Assembly: GCA_964016885.1 (NCBI GenBank)
Contig: OZ024742.1
Location: 86,614,001-86,678,000, forward strand
Source: Eledone cirrhosa
Taxonomy: Eukaryota
Reading direction: 5' to 3'
DNA: 64,000 bases
In this document: piece by piece, positions 1 to 44,419 of the stretch
Position numbering within the stretch: the stretch's first letter is position 1
Layout of the letters: every line of letters begins with the position of its first letter
The notes under the pieces: generated by a model
Seen by the model: the letters and a program-made list of their open reading frames with translations, nothing else
Told to the model about the DNA's origin: nothing
The model's database searches: none
Position numbers and translations under genes: made by a program

Positions 1-1429
1 AAAACAAATATCATCATGCAATAATATTTGTGTTTTCATCAGATAAAATAGGAAGACATGATATGAAGGTTAAAAAATACTTGTGAATAGTGCAATTTTA
101 AATCAACATATGAAAAGTAGTTTTAGATTGATGTGTGATATTGGGAAAACAAATGTTTGAGGGGGGGGGGGATGAACAAGAGGAGGAGAGGAAAGTAAAA
201 AGTGGAGGGGGAGGAGTATAATGAGGAAGGATGAGATAGGAGGAGAGATGGGTGATAGAGAGAGAGATATAGCTTTTATAACTGAGAAAAATATATTGTT
301 TTACATAGAGAGGTTGAAAAACCATTGGAAGATAATGAATAAATTAAAAGAATTTGAAAATTAACGAAGAGAAAAATAATGTAAAGTTAAGGTTTGTATA
401 TTGAAGGGTTTAATAATATGTGCGATGAAAAGAAAATGTTAATATGTATTAAGAATAATATTTAAGGGTTTAATAATATGTGCGATGGAAAGAAAATGTT
501 GATATGTATTATTAAAAAAACACAAGTAATGTAAGTAAGGATATATTGTGGTACCTTTTCTCACTGTGCCTAACATTGAAACAATTATTACACAATACAA
601 TATATTCTTACTTTATATCACCTTGAAAAAATCCTTCGTAAACATTAACATTTTTTTTGACGTTAGATTATTCATCCTCAATTCATTATTTGTTCTCCCT
701 TTCATCTAACTTACTCATGCTCATCTCACAATATATCCTTACTTACATTACTTGTGTTTTTTTAATAATACATATCAACATTTTCTTTCCATCACACATA
801 TTATTAAACACTTAAATATTATTCTTAATACATATTAACATTTTCTTTTTATCGCACATATTATTAAACCCTTCAATATACAGACCTTAACTTTACATTA
901 TTTTTCTCTTCGCTAATTTTCAAATTCTTTTAATTTATACATTATCTTCCAACGGTTTTTCAACCTCTCTATGTAAAACAATATATTTTTCTCAGTTATA
1001 AAAGCTATATCTCTCTCTCTATCACCCATCTCTCCTCCTATCTCCTCTTTCCTCATTATACTCCCCCCTCCACTTTTTACTCTCATCTCCTCCTCTTTTT
1101 CATCCTTTCCAACCTCCCCCCCCCCCTCAAAAAATGTTTTCCCAATATCACACATCAACCTAAAACTACTTTTCATATGTTGATTTAAAACTGCACTATT
1201 CACAAGTGTTTTTTAACCTTCATATCATGTCTTCCTATTTTATCTGATGAAAACACAAATATTATTGCATGATGATATTTGTTTTTGAAATGCGCATAAT
1301 AAAATACATGGAACTCTTTTAACCATCTTTTGATCTTATATATTATGTATACTCCAGTCCTACAAACTGTAGAGTGCTTCTTATCCGATATCTGCATTGC
1401 TTTATCGTACTACAATAAAACTCACCTCC

Positions 1430-1432
<3 letters not shown>
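1..1432 (+). mobile_element. Penelope-like element remnant: inverted pseudo-LTR (1-550) plus forward pLTR/3' region (551-1432)
   Basis: 1-550 is the reverse complement of about 727-1287. The forward arm carries a hammerhead at 1236-1306. 1176-1432 recurs inverted at about 47132-47387. The element ends in (TA)n. Confidence 0.7.
1236..1306 (+). ncRNA. Type I hammerhead ribozyme (family A)
   Basis: TATTTTAT-CTGATGA-[AAACACAAATATTA...TGATATTTGTTTTT]-GAAA-TGCGCA-TA-ATAAAATA. Perfect 8-bp stem I, intact core, palindromic stem III (ATGCGCAT), AUA cleavage triplet. Confidence 0.88.
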
Positions 1433-1476
<44 letters not shown>

Positions 1477-1554
1477 TGATACACATATATATACATACAC
1501 ATATATATACATATATATATATATATATAGATAGATATAGATAGATAGATATAT

Positions 1555-1735
1555 TTAGTTATGTAATAAACAACATAAGATAATTATTTCATTTACCAAT
1601 TTTTTTCATTTACCAAATTATTTCAGCAACCAAAATTCCTTTCATTCATCAGAATGAAAAACTCCTGGTCTCTTTATTGACAGTGGATTTGAAAAACAAA
1701 AATATAACAGATATCAAAGTGAGGCTGGACGATAA
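1555..1735 (-). repeat. PLE pLTR-derived dispersed repeat (family B) with degenerate hammerhead at 1604-1659
   Basis: Homologous to about 24367-24570 and 29345-29546. Minus strand reads TTTCATT-CTGATGA...GAAA...GTA-AATGAAA. Confidence 0.65.
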
Positions 1736-1851
1736 AAAAGGGGTGGGGAATAATAAATAAGAATATATAACAACACACACGTACACACACACACACGTAC
1801 ACAGGCACACACACTCACATATACACACATATATACATATGTATATGTATG

Positions 1852-2022
1852 TGTCGTGCGTTCTAATATTGCAAAACTAAAGCTCCAATTCCAAGCTGTT
1901 ATTCAATATCTAGAATATAAAAACAGTAATTAGTCTTGAAGAAATATAACAATAATATTTGTAAGAAAAGAAAGATATGCAATAAAACAAAGTTATATTG
2001 AGGGTAGATGAACTTCATAATA
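1852..2022 (-). repeat. 3' LTR
   Basis: Direct repeat of 5744-5914. Preceded on the minus strand by a short purine-rich tract (CGGCGAAGAA). Confidence 0.95.
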
Positions 2023-2035
2023 TTCTTCGCCGAAT

Positions 2036-5000
2036 TTATTGTTCTTCAATATAGCGCTTGGGGGTTACGCGTATACGATTGCTTCGTCTCACGGGGTCAA
2101 CAGGAACTTGCGGTAGGATGCTAGTGCTATTTGCCACGGGATTTAAATCAATCACGGTTTCATCTAAGAGTAGATCGTTACTGTGGTCGATGTAAAGTGG
2201 TCTCGGCATATCAGCAGGACTGCTAATCGAACTGTTTTCTTGGATGGATTGATTGTCATTATTTTGACAATTAATTGGGCCAGGGGAGAGGTCTGCTGTT
2301 GAAACTTACTAGAACTTCCACTTTGATATCTGACAACCGCGAAATTAGCATTCACCATCTGTTCGATAATAACTTTATTCACTAAAGGGTTGTTCTTTGT
2401 ACGAATAAAGTTTCTAATATAGGCGTCGTTTCCAACTCTAAGCCAATCTGGTAGGGAAAATCCTAAGGAACCCTTTCGATCGAATCTAAATATGCGGTTA
2501 TGGGGTGTCTCATTAGTCGCTGTACAGAGAAGTGATCGTTGCGAGGCAAGAACTTCTGGTATGATATCTTCCCACTTAGTTTCTTTAAGATTGCGCGAGT
2601 TAATTATGCATTGAATTCCTTTCCAGTGGACTCCGCTGTAGCGCTCGTTTTGGCCATTTCCTTGTGGATGGTACGTCGAAGTGCGCGTGTGGGGTATACC
2701 ATTGGACAAGCAGAAATGATCGAATTCTTTGGAGAGAAACTGAGTTCCTCTATCGGAGTGTATGAATGAGGGAGCTCCGAATATTGAGAAGATTTGTTTG
2801 AGACAGTAAATGACAGTGTTTGAGGTGATGTCACGCATACCGAAAGCAAAAGGGAATCTGCTGAATTCGTCTACTACAGTCAATAAGTACATGTTTTCTG
2901 CTTTTGAAGATTTTGGTTTTGGTCCAACGATATCGATTGACAGACGTTCGAACGGCCTTGTTGACTTAATGAGTTTAGCAGGTGGAGGCTTGAAGAATGT
3001 TGGCTTGCACTCCAAACATGATACGCAGTTTTTGGCGACGTCGCGGATTTCGTCTACGGAAAAGGGCAGGTTATGGCGTCGGATATAATCGTAAAATCTA
3101 GTTACTCCTGGGTGTGCTAGTTGGTCGTGGAGTACTTTTAAATCACAGGGTGGCGATATAGCTGCAGCGATTCTTGAAAGACAATCGGCTTGGGTGTTGA
3201 GGTAGCCGGATTTGTAGTCAATGTCAAATTGATGCTCTGATAGTTCTAAACGCCAGCGATATATTTTATCATTTTTGATTCGTGATTTAGTACTCGAGAA
3301 AATGAAGGCTACTGATTTTTGGTCAGTCCGTATAATCGTATGAAAACACTTCACGTATTGCGACCACCTCTGTACAGCTTCAATAATAGCCATAGCTTCT
3401 CGCTCCACAGTTGATTGTCTTTTCTCGGACGGTGTAAGTGTTCTCGACAGGAAGGCCACGGGCCGTTCGTTTTCAGAAAGTATAGCTCCGATTGCATCGC
3501 CAGACGCATCTGTTTCTGTTACCAATGCGTGGCCAGTTTTAAGAGGAATGCTAAGAGCGGCATTAGAGATATCTGCTTTCATGGCTTGTATTACATCTGT
3601 AGCTACTTTATTCAGCGGGAACAAGTCACCTTGTAATAGTGGTTGGATTTTCTTCGAGTAATCGGCAATCCACCTAGCATTATAGGCTAGGAATCCAAGG
3701 AATCGTTTCAGTTGTTGTTTGTTTGTTGGGATTGGGTAGTCTAGTAGGGTTTTGATGCGTTCCTTATCGGGTTTCTTTACTCCTTTCTGAATGTTATAAC
3801 CTAGAATAGATATACTCGTTTGGCAGATTTTACACTTATCCGAGTTAAGAGTTAGGTTTTCTGTCTTCACGGCGTTTAAGAATGCTTCCACATTTCTATC
3901 ATGTTCAGCTTTGGTATTTCCCGTGACTATTACGTTGTCAATATAGGCATAAGTTTTGAGTAAGTTATATTTATCTATAACTTGATCCATAATTCTCTGA
4001 AAAACAGGTAGAGCGTTAGTCACGCCGAAGGGTTAGCGGCAGAATTGGTAGAGTTTGTGATTAGCCTGAAATGCCGTTAGAGGTTTGTCGATTTTTCTTA
4101 AAGGTACTTGGTGATACGCTGATTTGAGGTCGAATTCTGAAAAATATTTATCCTGTGCCACTTTGTTAACAACATCCTCAATGTCGGGGGATGGATAGGC
4201 ATCCAATTGTGTATACTTATTAATTGTCTGTGAGTAGTCTACCACGAGTCGAGGTTTCTTTCCGTGCACTATGAAGCACTGAGCTCGCCAAGGTGAAATT
4301 GATTCATCAATGATACCGGCTTCTAGGAGGCGAATTATTTCGGACTTAATAAAATTGTCGTCTCTCTTGTTAATGAAACGTCCCTTAGTGGCAATCGGCT
4401 TGATATTTGTCTCGGCTAAATCGTGGAAGACAAGAGGCGGATTAACTTCTATTGTCGGAAAGGTACAGCATAGTTGATTTGAAAATTTCACGGGAGGCCG
4501 GGCACCGCCAAGGTGGAGAATAATAGAGCTATGCTGGGTGAGGACATCCATTTCGATAATGACGTCTGCGACAATACTTTTTGCAGTGACTAGGTTCACA
4601 GAGTATTCCTCGCTGTAGATACATATTGGTATGGATGTAGTACCAGTCGTCATTAATATTTTATTGTCAGCTAGTGTGATTGCCCGTTTTTCTTGTTTTA
4701 CGCTCAAGTTTAATTCAGTTGCTATGCTATGACGTATAAACGAATCTGTGGAACCAGGATCGATTAAGGCCTTTAGTGTGGTTTCTTTTATAGTTATCGG
4801 GCAGAGAATAAATTTAGACTGTTTGCCGGTATTTAATGAACATATAAGTGAGGCTGCTTGCTTACTGCTTTGGTAGACTGATTGCCAGTGGCCGATCTTC
4901 CCACAAGAATAGTATATGTCTTTTCTAGCTGGGCATTTATTTCTAGGATTCCTAGAAAGTCCACAAAAAAAGCATTTAAATTGACTTTGGGAATTAGCAT

Positions 5001-5631
5001 TTTTCAAGTATTTCAGAAGAGGTTGTTTTGATTTTGTAGCTGCTACGGTAGGTTCTTGAGAGGATGTAGTTGACAGTGTTGATGAATTCAGAGAGACGTC
5101 TAGGTTGAATGATTTAGTAAAATCACTGAATAGTTCTATTGCATTTGCCATTGCTATGCAGTCTTTTAGGTTTGCTTGAGTATCGTCCAGCTCTAGGAGA
5201 CGTGCTCATATAGCGTCTGATTGGACTCCTGCTACTAGTGAATCCAGGATCAACATATCTCTGTGGTCTTTAGCTGTGATGGATTTACAGTTACATTTTT
5301 CCACTAAAAGGTTGAGTCTTTTAATAAACTATCGGATGGTTTCTTCTTGCTTTTGGCGGCATGTTAGGAGTTGATGTCTGGCATAGAGTAGACGACTTGG
5401 GGCAAAGAATTGAGTATCCAGGGTGATTAGTGCTTCGTTGAAGTTTTCTGCAGATTCGAGTAAACTAAATAGGTCGGCCCCAGCTTGTGAACGAAGGTAG
5501 GTCAATTTATGGTTGTCCTCTACTATGCCGTTTATGAGTAGGGAATCCAAAAAACACTTCCGCCACCATCGCCAGTGCTCGGATGTGGGGTCATTTGGGA
5601 ATGTTGGATGTGTAATTTTTAATTGAGCCAT
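2036..5631 (-). pseudogene. gag-pol polyprotein, interrupted by stops/frameshift
   Basis: ATG at 5631. Gag with Mag-type twin Cys/His knuckle relic (CFFCG...CPARKD..SCGKIGH), protease ALIDPGS, RT (FDLKSAYHQ, YIDN), RNase H (TDAS, EAMAI, TDQKS), integrase HHCC and D,D,E (IDIVGP, SDRGTQF, ERY). The C-terminus RRSNRIRVTPKRY ends at 2036. Stops near 5329, 5209 and 4033; frameshift near 2300. Confidence 0.93.
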
Positions 5632-5729: not shown

Positions 5730-5742
5730 ATATTGAATAAAA
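5730..5742 (-). promoter_or_regulatory. Atypical primer-binding site complementary to the element's own LTR
   Basis: TTTTATTCAATAT lies 1 nt downstream of the 5' LTR, with no TGG. It is the exact reverse complement of LTR 5789-5801. Confidence 0.65.
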
Positions 5743-5743
5743 T

Positions 5744-5914
5744 TGTTGTGCGTTCTAATATTGCAAAACTAAAGCTCCAATTCCATGCTTTTATTCAATA
5801 TCTAGAATATAAAAACAGTAATTAGTCTTGAAGAAATATAACAATAATATTTGTAAGAAAAGAAAGATATGCAATAAAACAAAGTTATATTGAGGGTAGA
5901 CGAACTTCATAACA
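5744..5914 (-). repeat. 5' LTR
   Basis: TGTTGTGCG...TCATAACA, followed by TSD GTATG. Confidence 0.95.
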
Positions 5915-5940
5915 GTATGTATACACACACACACACACAC

Positions 5941-7029: not shown

Positions 7030-7690
7030 AAAAAAGCCTTCGTGAGCCACTTTTTTTTTTTCAAGTAAAAAGAAATTCAAACACACACACACACACAAGC
7101 ACACAAATAGACATACATATCTTTACTTTCTTTATTCAATAGAAAATCTGAATTCTGACACCCCAGCGAACTAACCATATTCACTGAACCAGAACAATTC
7201 TCCCATCCCATTTCTCTTGACCATTATCTTTTACTTATCATAAAATTCTCAAAAAAGTCTACAGAACGGATTTTCAAATAAGGGCGCGAAAATTTAATGA
7301 AAACTTGTTCACGTGATAGCCATAATTTAATTTATAACCAATCAAATTATGTTTATTTAAAAAAAGCATTCAAACACTCATATATGAAAAAAATAACCTG
7401 TGACCCCCCCCCCCCCCCCCCCCACCCCCACCCCACACACACACACACACCCACCCTTGTTTGTTTAAAGAACATTGTAACGCGAACTGGCGCGAAATGT
7501 ATAAATTACCAACCAATCAAATTACTTCTCGAAAAACCATATAAAACAAGTAACCACAGACCCTGCATCTGAACTCTACTTTTGAAAAGCAGAAGAACTG
7601 CCAAACCGGTAAAGGAACCAAATAAATATATATATATTTTTTTTAATAAGACTGCAGTTGCATTTTCGATTTCATCTTTTTTTCTTTATG
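7030..7690 (+). repeat. Rearranged solo pLTR fragment of the Neptune-type PLE at 16003-22190
   Basis: Blocks homologous to 21390-22190. Contains a family D hammerhead relic (7579-7614, GAAA changed to CAAA) and GGCGCGAAA/CCAAT motifs. Confidence 0.8.
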
Positions 7691-7716
7691 TATATATATA
7701 TATTTTTTTCCGTTTA

Positions 7717-7791
<75 letters not shown>

Positions 7792-7794
7792 ATA

Positions 7795-7981
7795 TATAAC
7801 TGAATGAAAAGGAAAAAGGAACACAGACATATATATATATTAATTTATTCTTAAATTGAGTCTCGCAAACCCTATTGTCTGTAGTTAGTATTGTTTTCAC
7901 CTCACCGATTTTGGTCCATTACGATTTGAACATATATATATATAAATGTCTGTGTTATTTTTCCTTTTTGTTCAGTTATAT
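7795..7981. repeat. Short fold-back with about 40-bp imperfect inverted ends
   Basis: TATATAACTGAATGAAAAGGAAAAAGGAACACAGACAT versus ATGTCTGTGTTATTTTTCCTTTTTGTTCAGTTATATA. Confidence 0.6.
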
Positions 7982-8139
7982 ACTGCTCGGAAACATCTTT
8001 TTTCCTATGGCCAATTTAGTGTAATGAGACTATTTTGAGTTTCAATCTCAATACATGCTTATGATATATATATATATATATATATAACTTTGAATAACTT
8101 TGAAATGTTCCGGCCAGTATTGGCCCAGGCCATGTCTAA

Positions 8140-11130
8140 CTTAATATCACCACCTGGCGAAGTCTTTCAATTCAGGATTTGGGCACCATGGCCCATACGA
8201 GAAGAGAATTACTGTTTGCGGAGATATATCCGGGTGTGGGTGGTTTGTCCGGGATTACTTGGAGGAATTTGTCCAAAGACTTCTTGAATTTGTGTGGTCA
8301 GTTTCTGTTTTGACGTGTCCTGGTGTGTTGTTGAAGAGAGCAGGGCCAATTGAGGTGAAATAATTGTGCCGTATTGTTGTTATGAGTTGTGATTTAGATT
8401 TTTGTTTGGGACGGATAGCACGGGGCCCAAGCCTTGGGTGTATTTTGAAGGTGAAGCCAACATCATTTGGGCAGTGCCGATGAAACATTTTCCACATCAT
8501 GCAGATAATATAACGCTCACGGCGACGTTGGAGTGAGTAAAGTTTCAGCTTTTCTAGTCGACCCCATTAGTCAAGGTCTGACATGCCATCTATCTTTTCC
8601 GTGATTGCCCTTTGGAGAGGCTTCAAGTTTGATGATACTTTGTTTCGTGTGGGGAGACCACAGTGGACAACAGTATTCAAGGTGTGGTCGGGCAAAAGTG
8701 GAGAAGAGAAGGATAATGGGGTGGGAATCTCTCGACTGAAAGGTTCTGAGGATCCAGGAACACATTCTGCGAGCCATGTCAACTTTGCTGCATATATGCG
8801 TGGCCCAGCTTATGTTGCTGTCCACGGTTACTCCCAAGTCTCTGATGTTGTTAGATGCCACGAGAGTATCACCGGAAGGAAGGGAGTACGGGAGTTTCAG
8901 AGCATCCTCTTTTCAAAAGTGGATCAGTTCGAATTTGTCTTCGTTCAGTAACATGTTGTTCTTTTCCGCCCATTGAGTAACAAACAGTAGGTCTGACTGA
9001 AGGCCTATCCAGTCATCCACGCCATTGATGACGTTTTGGAGCTTGCAATCATCATCGAAAATTCTAATGTTGCTGTGTTTGATGATGTCAGTGATGTCAT
9101 TAATATAGGTGATGAAGAGAAGTGGGCCCAACACAGTGCCTTGTGGGACCCCACTAATGACTTTGGCTGGGCTGGATTTGACTCCTTCGACTACAACATG
9201 TTGGGTTCTGTTTGACAGGAAGCTCTTGATCCACTGCAGCAGCTTTCCAGTGACACCAATATCGGACAGCTTTCTCAGTAGAATGTTGTGATCAACCCTG
9301 TCAAATGCCTTGCTGAAATCAAGGTAGATAACATCAGTGTTGGAACCCTCTCCCAAGGCTCTCAAAATGTCATCAAAGTGATGTAGTAGCTGCGTCAGGC
9401 AATCCCTTCGATTACGGAATCCATGCTGTTTGGAGTTCAGCATATTGTTACTCTCAAGGAAGTGAGTCATTCGCGATCTCACCACTCTCTCAAATACCTT
9501 AATGATATGAGAGGTGAGTGAGATTGGACGGTAATTAACGGCAAGGGATTTGTTTCCATTTTTGAAAACTGGGACAACAGACTGGGATAGAAGGTTTTCT
9601 GGCACATATCCAGCATCCAGTGAGTTCCGCCACAGATTGGCAAGAGGAGATGAAAGTTGGTGTTGACACATCTTCAAGACACAGGCAGGGAACCTATCGG
9701 GACCTACCGCTGAATTATGCTTGATTTCCTGTATTGCCGCTAAGACATCAGGGGCGCCAAACGTTATGTCCGATAAGGTGTAATGGAGAGTAACATCGCC
9801 GATACAGCCCAGATCGCCATATCAGGATTGCTGAAAACAGAACAGTATTGTTTCTGCAGTATCTCACCCATGGTTTTAGCATTGTCTTGAAGAGTGCCAT
9901 TTTCATCAATTAGAGGGCCAACAGTAGAGCCAGTGATTTTGTGTTTTTTTGCAAATGAAAAGAACACTTTGGGATTGAGTTTGATCTTCTCAATGGCCAA
10001 GGCCTCTTCAGTTCTTCTCTGATTGTTGATGATAGACATCATATTCTTTTGGATGTTATGTTTTTGAATCTCTAGTGATGAAATGCCAGTCAAGTCGATG
10101 TGTTGCTGCTGACAGTATTTCAGCTTGTTGATTTTTTTGTTAGTTCTCCTAATTTTCCTGATGAGCGTTTTTCTATTTCTAGGGATTCTGCTCTTAGATT
10201 TGTTTATAGTTCTTAATGGGGTGTGTTTTGCACATGTGTTTGTAACAGTGTCCACAAATGTCTGCCAGGACATTTGGATGTTAGTGGATGTGTGAGTGTG
10301 CGTGAAGGACCAGTCGACATGTGCAAGATCATGACTGATAGCTTCCCAGTTTGCATTGTGGAAATCCATAGCGTCAAACGGATGGACAGGAGAGATGACA
10401 TTGGGTTTGTATATTGGACGGTCGAATCTCAGATCTCAGAGAACCATGTCATGATCAGAGAGTAGAGTTTTCTCCACTGCAATATTGTGGATAGTGTCAG
10501 TGTGATTAAGTCTAGGACGTTTTTGTGGATAGTGTCAGTGTGATTAAGTCTAGGACGTTTTTGTGGCACCTCGTTGGTTCGAGCACCAGTTGGGACAGGA
10601 AGAAATCATCCATGAAGTCAAGAAGCGATTCCACTGCTTCCCTGTCAGAGGTTGAGGCAGAAGAACCTGGTGGCAGGCTGTTTGTGGACCAGTCAACTCC
10701 GGGGAGGTTGAAATCCCCCATCATTAAGATGTTGAGGCATTCCTTGAAGCATGGTAGAGGCGTTTGGGGTGGCCTATAGAGCCCAACTACTATTAGGTTG
10801 TTGTTTTGACTGAATACAGTGACTGCTTCGCAGTATCCATTAGTAAATATGTTCATAGCCTCTGTTGAGAAAGAATTATGGACGTAAATGGCAGTCCGAC
10901 CCTTTCTTCTGCCAGCGCGATAAGCACGGATGGCTTTGAAAGTTTTCACTTTCACCTCGGCTTCCAAGTGTAGGTTGCTGAGATGGGTTTCAGTGAGGAC
11001 GAATAAAGGGATGTGGTTTGGATGGACATCTCAACCCAGTCCTCCAGGAATTTGATCTTCTATTTTTGAGTATTGTTGGAAGGGCTGATGCCTTGGGCGT
11101 TAAGCAAAAATGTCGAGGCGAGAGTGGATG
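8140..11130 (-). pseudogene. LINE ORF2: APE endonuclease + reverse transcriptase
   Basis: LNAQG, LTETH, YRPP, MGDFNLP, LDL and SDH endonuclease motifs. RT motifs NYRPISLTS, QHGFR, YLDFSKAFD, SGVPQGTVLGPLLF, IFDDD, RDLGV, RPHLEYC. Several frameshifts. Confidence 0.93.
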
Positions 11131-11139
11131 GTTTTAATT

Positions 11140-11809
11140 ATTTTGGTGTGTTGTTAATTTGTTTGTTTGTTAATGGCAGCAATGGGAGTTTGTGCAGTGG
11201 GGTGATAGTCGATGGTGGTGCTGGGTGATAGCTCGAAAGTTTTTTTCCAGTTCTTTTGCCAGATTCATTATAGCTAAAAAAGAGGAAGAAATTTCCTGTT
11301 TAGGAGACTGTTGGTGACTGTGGTAGTGGTTATTTTTATGTAGGTTATGGTTTTTGTTTTTGCTTTTATTTTTATTTTAATTTTATTTTGTCCGACGGGT
11401 CCCCGGGAGATGGGTAAAGGGACAATCCGGTGTAAACACAATCTGTCTCGCAGGGAAAAGCGGCAAATTTGTGGATTCCTTATTTGAGTTATTGGTGGTT
11501 GTGTTGGTGTTAAATTAGAGTATGTATTATGGTGGTGGCTGTTTGTGGGGATATACCGTTTTGTCCTAGGTAAATGGGTGAATTTGCAGCCACTATCACT
11601 ACATATTCTATAGCGTAGAGAGTAGCGGCAAATGATGGGGTTTCGGGTGGGAATGTATGTGTGTGTGTGTGTTGTGAGAGGTGTAGATGATAGTTTGAGT
11701 AGGTTTTGACGACCTGTGTGGGCTGTGGGAGGGAGAGTTCTTGTATTGGTATTAGAGGGTAAATTTCTTGAGATAGCAGTAGGCAAAGATGTAGTAGTAG
11801 TAGTAGTAA

Positions 11810-24949: not shown

Positions 24950-27395
24950 AGAGAGTAATAAAAATCGTAGTGGATGTAAGGCGTATAGGGCCAAGAAGAA
25001 TTTCAAGGTAGTTGAGTCATCGTAGAAATGTCAATTCAGTTACAGATAAGATGTGATTTCAGGTGAGGACAACATCTGAAGATCTCGGTTTGGAATTCAA
25101 GCATTTTGACGTGACTTTCAATATTTGTAGAATTCTAAATTTTTCCGTGGTACGCAAAGAACAATTCTTTTTTGCCCCTTTGATATACCCTCGAATCGTC
25201 TAAATTAGACCAATCGATAGAATACGGGATGTTTTTATCTTTGAATTCCAACACCTTATTTGCGAGAGCCGTTGTTGTTCTTTTATCAGAGTGTTTAAAA
25301 GAAGTGACATGTGCATAAAATCTGGTTTTGAACCTGTCCTGAGTCATGCCAACATTTCGTTAACTCCTGGTTGCCTTTAAAGGTGTTACTTAGGCCTCAT
25401 ATACAAAGGATTTGGCATTATATTTGCCCTGTAATGGGCATTTATCCGGCTTCCTGCAACTGCATCCTGGATTTATTCTCGTACGATTAGAATTAGTGAT
25501 ATTAGACCTCATTGATGGGCAGCAAGAGTAACGGATTTTAACTACATTTCTATTAAATATCTTATAATATTTATGATTAGGAGGAAAATGTTTGTCTAAG
25601 AGGTTAAGGAATTTCCTTCCTCCATAAGTTTTGACAGTTAGAGAGAAGGGGGTGTAAACCAAATAATTTTCCTTTTCCTATTATTGTGGTTAGTTTTAGG
25701 GGGAGGAGTAGGTAGATATTTAATGTGTTCTGTAAATCCGCTGTTATTAAGGGCTTTATTAAAATATTAAGGGCTTTGTTAAAAATGTCTAGAGACGAAG
25801 ATAAGGTAGAAATCCTACGGCTAATGTTGGGAATGAGATTTTTAAAAACTATAGGGGGATGGCAAGACTCTTTGTGTATATATCGAAGATTTTCGTTAGG
25901 TTCATGATAAGCTTTAAAAGAGGCGGTAAGTAGATCAAGATTAATATCAAGAAAGTTAGCATTGGTAAGGTTCGTATCTATAGTAATTTTAAGGTTAAGA
26001 TTAGCAAAAGTATTGATTAAACCTTTACGGAATTTATCAAGGTTATGGCCATTGGTGGTATGAGAAACTGCCAAACCGTCGTCACGGTATAAACCGATAT
26101 TATGGGAAGGAAGTTTCCCTTTAAGGGTGTGGAGAAGGAATAATCCTACTAAGTCAAACACATCCGCACTGTCATATGAACCCATTGCAAAATCAAAATA
26201 GTTTTTAACCCAAATATTTTCATTAGTAAAGAGTAGAGTTTTCCTAGCATGAAAGATAATGTCTCCCTCTAATTTAGAAATATTAATGAAGGGTCTTGCA
26301 AATGCTAAGGCTTTAGTTAATAAGGAAACAGTAATAGAGGGGTAAAAATCAACAATATCAAATTGGGTAAATCTACACTTATTTTTACCTTGTATATTAT
26401 TAAACCAAGAAATAACAGAGGATGTATTTAACCATTGTGATAAGTCAGTCTTAGTTCTCATTTGGAGAATTATTTTTCTTAAGATTTTTTTACTTGCAAG
26501 GCCAACTTCAGATTTAGCCGGGTTAATCAGTCTACAGCTAGGTCGATTAGTAAAATGTAATGTATGGTCTTTAAGGGTAATATATGCTTTACGTTCAACT
26601 AGGCTTTCAATCCGGTTGACTATTTTTAAAGAACTAGCTAGTTCTTTAGCTTCTCTATTAATAGTATTGTAGGTGTTATTATTAGTTAATTGATATTTGT
26701 TGGTGTTACTATTAGTTAAAAGTTGATTATACAAAATACTATTAACTTCAAAGAGATTTTTAGTTTTATCGGAAAGAACAAACGTGTTTGTAGAATTTTT
26801 AAAATTAGGAATATCGTTAGACAGTTTAGTTTGAAAATTATTATTGTACTTACGAAATTTGATATCACTAATTAAATTAAGAAGGTGTAATTCGAAGTTG
26901 GCCATGTCTTTAATTATAGGTGGGTATTTACGGGATTTTATGTCTAAATAATCAGTTGTATCAGCGCTGAATACTCCATCGTAAACCATTGCCTTCCATC
27001 TCATTCTTTTAACGACTTGTTCGATTTTTTCTATACGCAGTTTGGTATAAGTTGTGTTGGACGGAGTATGTATATTTTTGATTGAATAATCCAATTCATA
27101 AAGATCCATGCTGTATGTTGGTTAAATTCTTGAAAACTGTAGAGTGCTCAAATAATCGGGCTGGAATGTGGCAATCATATATGTAATATAGGATATGCTT
27201 CAACCAATCCCGGTTGAAAACTTGAAAGCCACTTCAACTTGCCTGAACTCCAAGACCGAGATCTTAAGATGTTGTCCTCACCTGAAATCACATCTGATCT
27301 GTAACTGGATTGACATTTCTACGATAACTCAACCACCTTAAACTTCTTCTCTGCCCTCTACGCCTTACATCCACTACGATTTGTATTACTCACTG
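24950..27395 (-). mobile_element. Near full-length PLE (DKT/CxCx5C type, possibly Hydra clade) with inverted terminal pLTR
   Basis: About 24950-25125 and 27215-27395 are diverged inverted repeats enclosing the RT-EN coding region. Confidence 0.9.
25060..27109 (-). pseudogene. PLE RT + GIY-YIG endonuclease (RT open for 501 codons, then frameshifts)
   Basis: YSIKNIHTP, KRMRWKA, SDKT, RLINPAKS, FDIVDFYPSI, MGSYDSA, GLYRDDGL, NFLDI; CSCRKPDKCPL; MTQDRFKTRFYAH. Confidence 0.92.
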
Positions 27396-41469: not shown

Positions 41470-43620
41470 ATTAGGTTTTTAATATTTAAATGTTTTTCTC
41501 AGTTTATGATTACACGATATAATTAATTCCTGTCGCTTATTTAATAGTATATCCTTAGATTTCATTATTTCAAATAGTTCTTGGGAACACAATCTACATT
41601 CATTTCTATTATTTTGATAAGGGGTGGCTCTTTTGAGCACACTCCAGGTCATATCATATTCTATATTCTTATTTCTATAACTATTAATTTTTTCTGCTAG
41701 AGATGTTGTATTAGCCAGTGCGGCATTTTTAAAACTATGTTTGTGGGTATTAAACCTTACCTTAACATTGTTAGAAGTAGCTCCTATATATGAGCAAATA
41801 GAATCTTTAGTTTTAATTCTACATTTATAAACTATGTTGTTAACAAGACAATTTCCTTTTAATGGGCAGTTTGCTTTGTTTCTACAGTTACAACCCTTCG
41901 TTAATTCTGTATTTGAGGAGATATTATGGTCAGTTTGATGTATTGGTGGTATACTTATGGTTTTTTTACATTTATATGCATTATTGGCACTTATATTTTA
42001 ATTTAAGTTTTTGGTTGTTGAGTATGAGAATTTAACTGTTGATCTATTTAAGATTTGATGGTATTTGTGGTTTGGCGGGAAGTTTTTCTCTAGGATATAA
42101 ACATTTTTTTTAGTAATATTATCCTTAATTTGTAAATTAAATGGAGCATTATACCAAGTAACTCGTCTATTAGGTTTCTATGTTGTTTATTATTTTTATA
42201 GGTTGCATCGTGATGTTTACTAGGAGGATTAACGTTAATGACCTCACCACGCACATTTTTAGTTAGATTCATTGATTTAGGTGTTTTATCTTGTTTATTA
42301 GGAGTTTTATTATTAACATTTATTAGAGTTGTATGATGAGTAGTTTTTTGAGAGTTACTATACTTTATATTAGAGGAGTTAGAGAAAATTGGTTTTATGT
42401 TGGTATTTTGGGGTATAGTGTGAGTGGCATTTAGGTGTGTACTTTTCATTTGGTGTTTGTTGGTAATATTAGGTTGTATTTTTATAGTGTTTTTAGTAGA
42501 AGGTATATATTCCAATCTATTTTTGTGGCCACTTCTATCTAGAGCTTCGTTATAGAAGGTCGCATTTTTATCAAATACATCTTGGTTAGACGAAAGGTTA
42601 GAAATTCTAAGTGATATATTATATGCCAGGTTTTAAGGATAGATTTAGGGTGATTAGATTGTGAGTGTATGTAGTGTAAGTTTTGGTTGGGTTTATGGTA
42701 AGGTTGGTAGATACCCGTAGCTAAGTCTAAAGTTATATCTAGGAAATTAACTACTTTACTTGTGTTTTCAAAAGTAATATGAAGACTATAATAGTCTTTA
42801 AGGAAAGTTCTAATAAGCTTTTCGTTTTTTTCTATTTCTGAGAGGCTAAGGTTGTTGGAAAGAAGAAGACAGTCATCACGATATAAACCACCTTTAAGGT
42901 GGGGGAAAGGAAGCATTTATGTTAAAAAGAAGAAAGAGGCCCACAAGATCAGTAATTTGGGCAGAATCGCTTGAACCCATAGTAATATCAAATAGATTAC
43001 TATATGTGTTTCTGGTCCAGTATTCATTCTGAAATTCAATAAGTGTTAGTCTAGCAAGTGTAATAATATTAATGTCATCCAAAGTTAAGTTAGATCTATT
43101 TTTAGCAAATATCAAAGCTTTGTTCAGGAGTATAGGTGATATAGAAGAATAGTAATTATCTATATCAAATTGTAGAAATGAAGCAGAAGATTTACATCTA
43201 ATATTTTTAAACCAGTTAATTACCTGGGAAGTGTTTTCCCAGAGTGGTAAATTAACATGTTTTCTTATTTGTGGGATGACTCTAACCAACATTTTTTTGC
43301 TAATTATTCCAATATCAAATTTGGAGGGACATATAAGTCTTATAGAAGGATTTGAGTTAAAGTTTGATTTATGATCCTTCAGGTTGAAGTGTGGTCTTTT
43401 CAATGCCAAAGGTTCAGTTCTATCTTCAATATTTAGTTTATTTACTATGTTGTGTGTTTTGTTGTTGATGTTGGTGAGTGACGCAATATTAGATTTTCTA
43501 TAATTTTTCCTGAGTTCTTTATATATGAACTCATTATAATTTTCAATATCCATGTGATACAAGTTTCCAGTTTTGTCCGAGTGGACATGGATTTTTTTAG
43601 ACATTTTAGGTCCAATAGGG
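41470..43620 (-). pseudogene. PLE RT-linker-GIY-YIG, frameshifted
   Basis: SDKTGNLY, RLICPSK, QFDIDNYY, MGSSDSA, GLYRDD, VNFLDI, YIHSQSNHP. The endonuclease copy mirrors 43628-44419 but has stops. Confidence 0.9.
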
Positions 43621-43627
43621 TAGAAAT

Positions 43628-44419
43628 GTGCGTGGTGAGCTCATTAACATTAATCCCCCTAGTAAACATCACGATGCAACCTATACAAATAATAAACAAC
43701 ATAGAAACCGTAATAGACTAGTTACTTGGTATAATGCTCCATTTAATTTACAAATTAAGGATAATATTGCTAAACACTTTTTTTATATCCTAGAGAAAAA
43801 CTTCCCGCCAAACCACAAATACCATCAAATCTTAAATAGATCAACAGTTAAATTCTCATACTCAACAACCAAAAACATAAAACAAAATATAAGTGCCTAT
43901 AATGCATATAAATGTAAAAAAACCATAAGTATACCACCAATACATCAAACTAACCATAATATCTCCTCAAATACAGAATTAACGAAAGGTTGTAACTGTA
44001 GAAACAAAGCAAACTGCCCATTAAAAGGAAATTGTCTTGTTAACAACATAGTTTATAAATGTAAAGTTAAAACTAAAGATTCTATTTGCTCATATATAGG
44101 AGCTACTTCTAACAATTTTAAGGTAAGGTTTAATACCCACAAACATAGTTTTAAAAATGCCGCACTGGCTAATACAACATCTCTAGCAGAAAAAATTAAT
44201 AGTTATAGAAATAAGAATATAGAATATGATATGACCAGGAGTGTGCTCAAAAGAGCCACCCATTATCAAAATAATAGAAATGAATGTAGATTGTGTTCCC
44301 AAGAACTATTTGAAATAATGAAATCTAAGGATATACTATTAAATAAGCGACAGGAATTAATTATATCGTGTAATCATAAACTGAGAAAAACATTTAAATA
44401 TTATAAACCTAATAATTAA
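43628..44419 (+). CDS. Uninterrupted PLE GIY-YIG endonuclease-only reading frame in the inverted arm
   Basis: 263 codons: WYNAPF, CNCRNKANCPLKGNC, IVYKC...YIGAT..FKVRFNTHKHSF, CRLCSQE, LNKRQE. Starts at GTG at the inversion junction; expression unproven. Confidence 0.6.
   Translation: MRGELININPPSKHHDATYTNNKQHRNRNRLVTWYNAPFNLQIKDNIAKHFFYILEKNFPPNHKYHQILNRSTVKFSYSTTKNIKQNISAYNAYKCKKTISIPPIHQTNHNISSNTELTKGCNCRNKANCPLKGNCLVNNIVYKCKVKTKDSICSYIGATSNNFKVRFNTHKHSFKNAALANTTSLAEKINSYRNKNIEYDMTRSVLKRATHYQNNRNECRLCSQELFEIMKSKDILLNKRQELIISCNHKLRKTFKYYKPNN

Follow-up and report, generated by a model that had tools for sequence, protein, structure and literature searches.

A candidate self-primed Ty3/gypsy lineage outside the Tf1/sushi chromoviruses, seen from an element of Eledone cirrhosa

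The element and its surroundings

We focus here on a Ty3/gypsy LTR retrotransposon that lies on the minus strand of the window, by which we mean the whole stretch of 64,000 nucleotides that was analysed. The element runs from 5914 to 1852, is 4.06 kb long and has about 30 copies. The LTRs, the TSD, the polypurine tract (PPT) and the domain order PR-RT-RH-IN that define Ty3/gypsy membership are all present in the window element. We consider the LTR ends to be right because exact 5-bp duplications are found in 17 of the 22 copies with two LTRs. The features, in the direction of the element, are as follows:

5915 to 5919, minus strand: upstream copy of the TSD, CATAC; the identical 5-mer is found at 1851-1847
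5744 to 5914, minus strand: 5' LTR, 171 nt, TG...CA; ends backed by the 5-bp duplications
5834 to 5840, minus strand: TATA-like TATATTT, of doubtful role; no fixed place in relatives (LTR contexts compared by eye)
5801 to 5803, minus strand: putative transcription start and primer 5' end (AG, then the paired stretch), from the C and then T that follow the site of primer binding (PBS) in 8/8 and 7/8 junction copies
5789 to 5801, minus strand: predicted self-primer of 13 nt that pairs with the PBS; from the self match and the pairing across families
5790 to 5795, minus strand: AATAAA poly(A)-signal hexamer within the predicted primer; AATAAA or ATTAAA at the same place in 10 of 18 families
5744 to 5788, minus strand: predicted R/U5 loop, 45 nt, from the primer to the LTR end (RNAfold, 12 families; spacing of 20-65 nt in 18 families)
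5743, minus strand: one-base spacer (A) between LTR and PBS; offset 1 in 13/13 LTR-anchored ingroup families
5730 to 5742, minus strand: PBS, TTTTATTCAATAT, without TGG; from the self match, its last base being the break point of damaged copies
2036 to 5631, minus strand: single gag-pol frame, with double CCHC Gag, PR, RT with YIDN, RNase H, and IN without chromodomain
2023 to 2031, minus strand: polypurine tract, GGCGAAGAA, identical in other copies
1852 to 2022, minus strand: 3' LTR, 171 nt, identical to the 5' LTR at 166 of 171 positions (5 differences)
1847 to 1851, minus strand: downstream copy of the TSD, CATAC, matching 5915 to 5919

The gag-pol frame of the window copy is broken by stops and frameshifts, its IN C-terminus reads RRSNRIRVTPKRYIEEQ, and the RT (frame 2164-4032, minus strand) carries the catalytic motif YIDN instead of YxDD. 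A search of the host genome (3.0 Gb) gave 42 scored matches to the family, of which 22 cover the LTR and the leader nearly whole, and four solo LTRs of the family (L179, L180, L182, L185) were also found.

Other repeats share the window. At 1-1285 there is a large near-perfect palindrome (arms 209-550/727-1068, 97%, and 1-170/1116-1285, 95%) with 60-nt internal repeats, which is probably a fold-back element. A broken non-LTR retrotransposon at 8255-11030 (minus strand), with endonuclease and RT pieces, is presumably CR1/L2-like by its motifs. RT pieces and a further piece lie at 25604-27121 (minus), 42894-43640 (minus) and 43619-44419 (plus), the last two back to back, and we take them from their motifs to be Penelope-like RT and GIY-YIG-like.

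Placement of the lineage

The 120 nearest homologous proteins include nematode, insect and crustacean records and are mostly 1,100-1,300 amino acids long. The first-pass annotation had described the element as lacking a chromodomain and having a Mag-like Gag. The former is borne out: neither PF00385 (chromodomain) nor PF24626 was found in the window frames, in five ingroup polyproteins or in these 120 homologues, while most of the 120 neighbours of CfT-1 carry both. A double zinc-knuckle (CCHC) Gag is found in 114 of the 120 homologues, and the YxDN form of the RT motif in 43, many with long open frames. A literature search gave no paper matching this motif, and we rejected it as a clade marker since only 43/120 homologues have it.

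The placement was examined in an unrooted RT-RNase H tree of 20 rows, namely seven ingroup elements, eight chromoviruses, two Mag-type, two CsRn1-like and one env-bearing element. Four reference elements came from a mixed alignment, and the Mag-type and CsRn1-like labels are ones that we assume from the features of these rows. This tree omits the long-branch L250 and 24 other rows, and Tf1, sushi, Mag and Cigr-1 themselves are absent from it; a quick tree of 45 rows agrees with it. A long branch (100/100) separates the seven ingroup rows from all the others, including the eight chromoviruses (100/99) and the Mag-type pair (100/99). Grouping the ingroup with the five fungal-type chromoviruses, including CfT-1, is rejected (AU p 0.003), and grouping it with all eight is borderline (AU p 0.049), so that the tree puts the lineage outside the fungal-type chromoviruses, as the first-pass annotation had it for Tf1/sushi, with the wider chromovirus grouping at the limit.

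The Mag lineage is characterized by two CCHC knuckles in Gag and the absence of a chromodomain, and both features are present here. In the unrooted tree the Mag-type pair adjoins the ingroup (94/92, two references only), but nesting with either Mag-type reference alone is rejected (AU p 0.0002), and the TGG-initial tRNA PBS, a Mag-type trait, is absent from the element. The Mag-like description holds for the zinc knuckles and for a position beside these two references, but not for nesting with either.

The Cigr-1 elements have a single ORF of about 1,200 amino acids and short LTRs. The lineage is likely the Cigr-1 clade, a circumstantial assignment. Cigr-1 is the likely name because the host genome yielded three Gypsy groups comparable to CsRN1, Mag AB and Cigr-1, which parallel the main Gypsy groups of Octopus bimaculoides, namely CsRN1, Mag AB and low-copy Cigr-1 (PMC6238403, supplement 3). 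The Cigr-1 clade (Ciona intestinalis; molluscs, annelids) is filed under 'Mag' in the reference list of that paper (PMC6238403, supplements 1 and 3), and in the main text of the two clade papers the words 'PBS' and 'primer' are absent. The name 'Smaug' was also considered for the clade and dropped, with no supporting paper found; a search for clade names returned generic names only, and a search of IMG/VR returned no relative of the clade.

Pairing at the primer-binding site and the broken copies

After the final CA of the 5' LTR, the element has one A (5743) and then TTTTATTCAATAT (5742-5730), which is the exact reverse complement of ATATTGAATAAAA (5801-5789) inside its own LTR. The 3' LTR keeps 11 contiguous matches. 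Both had been pointed out in the first-pass annotation and were reproduced from the sequence, and its rough chance estimate of about 1e-4 agrees with dinucleotide shuffles of the LTR, in which a match of at least 13 nt starting at most 3 nt from the LTR end arose in 2 of 20,000. It had also reported that a TGG primer site is missing after the 5' LTR, and the first TGG of the leader is indeed met only at +57. Its TATA-like TATATTT is present, starting at 5840, 39 nt upstream of 5801, but has no fixed place in relatives as judged by eye. It had not remarked on the AATAAA (5795-5790) that lies within the LTR 13-mer. The PBS-LTR duplex is found in both the MFE fold and the centroid fold, and the folding stability of the whole 104-nt region is no better than that of shuffles (z 0.22). 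In the host genome, the perfect 13-nt pairing is kept in 18 of the 22 full 5' ends, the remainder having one change or a deletion.

The pairing is also found in related families. We screened 80 metagenome loci and 40 host-genome loci for LTR pairs, which gave 13 ingroup families whose LTR ends are set by LTR-LTR alignment. Ten have exact self matches of 12-17 nt at offset 1, and the remaining three (L111, L114, L136) pair with 1-2 mismatches. Six host-genome loci of the TGG type have self matches of 4-6 nt, the same as shuffles, and CfT-1 gave 9 nt in the same test. The leader of L170, from a Mag-type family, reads GAGTTTAT before TGG; TTTAT thus follows the LTR there too, without a long self match. 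A stem search over the metagenome loci with upstream DNA found at least 10 bp in 22 of 38; of the 16 blanks, 3 are accounted for by mismatched pairing or insertion and the other 13 gave no stem.

Covariation between the two arms was then scored over 18 families, a hand-picked set for which the pair count is partly circular because 6 of the 18 were located via the stem search itself. At PBS positions +2 to +13, 208 of 216 pairs hold, the best of 20,000 permutations being 175, and only 1 of 306 cross pairs between families is perfect; there are 17 different PBS 12-mers, and each fits the LTR of its own family and hardly ever that of another. The first three pairs are A-T in every family and the type of pair varies at the following nine, with compensatory changes between sister families (L066/L061, G-C to T-A; L065/L069, C-G to T-A). 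The arms thus covary, in line with what a conserved pairing had been expected to do in the first-pass annotation. The spacing from primer to LTR end is 20-65 nt across the 18 families. MFE folds of 12 families predict a central duplex plus R/U5 hairpins, with a hairpin directly after the LTR arm in most relatives (weak in the window element), while leader-to-U5 helices are not evident except in L111.

The host genome holds a second family of the clade (L140/L146, in G000), with about 43% RT-RH identity, a 194-nt LTR and 11 PBS bases in common. Its Gag ATG comes directly after the PBS, as in L070 and L080. One relative, on the metagenome contig L071, sits between two long open frames (1-3273 and 7186-11529, minus strand; 1,091 and 1,448 amino acids), perhaps a single large gene that it interrupts.

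The second body of evidence comes from damaged copies. In searches with exact patterns, the PBS is followed by the normal G in 18 copies and by a different base in 6, which is C in every case. When mismatched copies are added, there are nine junctions at which the element ends at position 185, the last base of the PBS, and these amount to eight independent events (L037, L038, L039, L040, L041, L042, L043 and L186), L039 being a tandem duplicate. The other internal breaks in the 39 loci number 13 and fall at 13 different places; 12 rows were left out of this count as 3'- or solo-LTR alignments spilling into the flank. The bases after the PBS in the eight events are CTA, CTT, CTT, CTA, CTAG, CCC, CTT and CTG, so that the first is C in 8/8 (p 7e-7) and the second T in 7/8 (p 0.002), while the third and fourth are at chance level (3/7 and 1/3). 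From the LTR bases upstream of 5801 one would expect C, T, A, G, and from the leader G, A. This CT is not a leader variant, because L037 and L038 contain a second PBS that precedes the normal leader G.

Past the break the DNA is foreign, for about 17-550 nt in those copies that return to the element, as most do; exact 5-bp duplications are kept in four of the eight junction copies, and the L037 junction is also found in a contig of the public run X2. For the L037 insert, no donor was found in the assembly except for a 59-nt repeat, and comparison of the inserts with their own flanks gave no donor among the matches listed. The second family of the clade has six copies whose break lies at +0 to +2 from the PBS end, with the LTR-templated next base in only one of the six: the break position repeats there, the extra letters do not. 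In a tRNA-primed (TGG) control family, a break after the PBS was seen in 0 of 18 copies, and 18/18 pattern matches continue into the normal leader (one family, a small sample).

The end of plus-strand strong-stop DNA is copied from the primer, and for this reason the junctions likely record a primer whose 5' end would sit 1-2 nt upstream of the paired stretch. On the bases read at the breaks, a start at 5803-5802 would fit the junctions as well as one at 5801. The C after the PBS could also be due to a copied cap or to untemplated addition, instead of being templated by G5802. A copied single-stranded PBS is reported to be retained at the 3' end of Tf1 cDNA (PMC11042837).

Some junction copies show further rearrangements. 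The post-PBS inserts of L043 (oriented 797-879) and L198 (1735-1960) look alike by eye over about 80 nt, a hint of a shared donor, and the L198 insert is a head-to-head palindrome between two PBS ends. L042, L186, L177 and L198 contain inverted internal segments too, which suggests repeated template switching after a PBS-end break. In L041 (G000:C4:263178747), the LTR, PBS and CTAG run straight into host DNA with no further element in 8.5 kb, and this insertion resembles the PBS-directed, integrase-independent insertions described for Tf1. Left-hand breaks were also considered as markers of where cleavage occurs, and rejected: the one in L177 is a 5-bp duplication around a later insertion, and those in L178 and L188, though close to the predicted cut, are isolated and show microhomology.

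Competing readings, proposed mechanism and known systems

From these comparisons, we find it quite probable that this young Ty3/gypsy element uses the first 13-15 bases of its own RNA to prime reverse transcription, in the manner of Tf1. Self-priming outside Tf1/sushi, as the first-pass annotation had proposed, is supported by conservation within the family, compensatory change across families, the primer-end junctions and the tree.

The duplex might instead serve mainly to hide the poly(A) signal of the 5' LTR from premature termination, priming being achieved by other means and the junctions arising from DNA fold-back on the inverted repeat. In keeping with this, AATAAA or ATTAAA closes the LTR arm in 10 of 18 families, most of the remainder having a weaker A-rich hexamer there, and a masking duplex would covary too. 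A nascent strand can also be extended by folding back on an imperfect inverted repeat, which would likewise add C, T, A, G after the PBS. However, masking leaves the element without a primer site, no TGG occurring until +57, and the PBS arm always begins exactly 1 nt past the LTR end. L065 and L063 have a better hexamer further downstream that the duplex does not include. As for fold-back, the extension ends after 1-2 nt, the next steps being at chance level; an RNA 5' end would account for this better than a DNA template, which would run on. We regard this explanation as unlikely.

A second possibility, improbable in our judgement, is that an LTR-derived primer works in trans: a short capped RNA of this LTR or a different one, produced by premature cleavage just past AATAAA or transcribed from a solo LTR, would anneal to the PBS without the cis cut of Tf1. 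The poly(A) signal lies 7-14 nt past the putative start, so that short RNAs could arise, the solo LTRs exist, and both the covariation and the junction bases would fit equally well. Yet poly(A)-directed cleavage leaves 10-30 bases past the signal, which would stay unpaired at the 3' end and need trimming, and the spacing of 20-65 nt together with the hairpin directly after the primer suits a cis fold.

That a host tRNA fragment or another small RNA is the primer, the LTR match being incidental, is very hard to reconcile with 17 different PBS 12-mers that each fit their own LTR and almost never another's, or with a leader that has no TGG at the primer site and gives 4 Rfam matches, all far under the gathering score. 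Half-tRNA primers do exist in copia lineages (PMC6317226), and the host tRNA set was searched in part: 16 Rfam matches and 23 genes, mostly tRNA-Thr and tRNA-like repeats, among which the best PBS match is 6 nt and the TGG controls are likewise unmatched. Finally, chance complementarity, for which the 34% GC of the window and the ordinary folding energy might speak, is refuted by the permutation test across families (0 of 20,000 above 175) and is hardly credible for the window element, with 2 of 20,000 shuffles.

The self-priming that we favour would proceed as follows. Pol II would start at 5803-5801, and the 5' end of the RNA would fold onto the PBS over the 45-nt loop. The RNase H of the element, whose domain is present, would cut after 5789, just before a hairpin, and leave a free 3' OH from which the RT would copy the one-base spacer, U5 and the remaining R. 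The primer would remain attached to the minus strand, and the plus strand would be copied up to the primer 5' end, adding C or CT past the PBS. When the second-strand transfer fails, this plus-strand end would join foreign DNA and give rise to the junction copies. The AATAAA of the 5' LTR would also be covered by the PBS-LTR duplex, likely as a side benefit.

A broader proposal, which we put forward tentatively and would not yet favour, is that an animal-wide Gypsy lineage, likely Cigr-1, evolved self-priming independently of Tf1/sushi. Its primer would consist of the first 13-17 nt with their cap and would have the poly(A) signal at its end, a single duplex thereby both priming and masking premature termination, and copying up to the unpaired 5' end would make the second-strand transfer error-prone, with about a quarter of the family insertions carrying foreign DNA at the PBS. 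If this is true, PBS-end junctions would allow one to read the primer and the start site from genome sequence alone, as a genomic record of the primer 5' end, and they may also mark a route for the capture of host DNA by the element. If a second Gypsy lineage, widespread in animals, is self-primed, this would mean that escape from the host tRNA, and from the silencing of the PBS by tRNA fragments, has occurred repeatedly. It would also tie priming to the poly(A) signal and provide a 170-nt system for tests of primer release.

To our knowledge, self-primed reverse transcription has been proven only in fission-yeast Tf1-type elements, and it is treated as the mark of one chromovirus group. In Tf1/Tf2 (S. 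pombe), Tj1, CfT-1 and the Tf1/sushi chromoviruses, as here, there is no tRNA PBS and the PBS next to the 5' LTR pairs with an upstream stretch of the LTR; the PBS is copied into the 3' end of the plus strand, as it would be here too (PMC10085805, PMC4600332 and PMC11042837). The element would work like Tf1 and shares with it this pairing to its own LTR, but on the domains and the RT-RH clade it does not belong to Tf1/sushi. Unlike them, the lineage has neither a chromodomain nor an SH3_Tf2-1 domain (0 of the 120 nearest homologues), forms a separate RT-RH lineage in invertebrate hosts, and has a single ORF in 4 kb with a double CCHC motif. Its pairing is of 12-17 nt, ends on the poly(A) hexamer and leaves a one-base spacer, and the three-duplex pretzel is not evident in the predicted folds. 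The pretzel RNA and the definition of Tf1/sushi are given in PMC10085805; related literature includes PMC3601003, PMC5341516, PMC6934838, PMC5006619, PMC5445492, PMC13524379 and PMC8556966.

Compared with the Mag lineage (A/B/C), the double zinc-knuckle Gag, the missing chromodomain and the adjacent position in the unrooted tree (94/92) are likenesses, whereas the long branch of its own (100/100), the shorter RH-IN linker and YxDN in 43 of 120 homologues set the lineage apart. The Mag-type family of the host genome also differs from the element, having TGG in its leader and no self match.

A search of the literature outside subscription journals, GyDB and Repbase gave nothing on self-priming in a non-chromovirus animal Gypsy clade. 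Precedents outside Tf1/sushi do exist and rest on the same type of evidence: self-priming has been predicted for Tcn1 (gypsy) and for TAR/Houba/Osr-1 (copia) from LTR complementarity of at least 10 bp, 0-5 bp after the LTR (PMC6317226). The novelty claimed in the first-pass annotation stands for the lineage, which differs from Tf1/sushi, but self-priming outside Tf1/sushi had already been predicted, as in copia TAR/Houba/Osr-1. Tcn1 is a chromovirus and TAR a copia element, both from plants, unlike the animal lineage studied here. The new points are the lineage, the overlap of the pairing with the poly(A) signal and the footprints at the junctions, while the mechanism itself is known in kind from Tf1 and, as a prediction, from Tcn1 and copia TAR.
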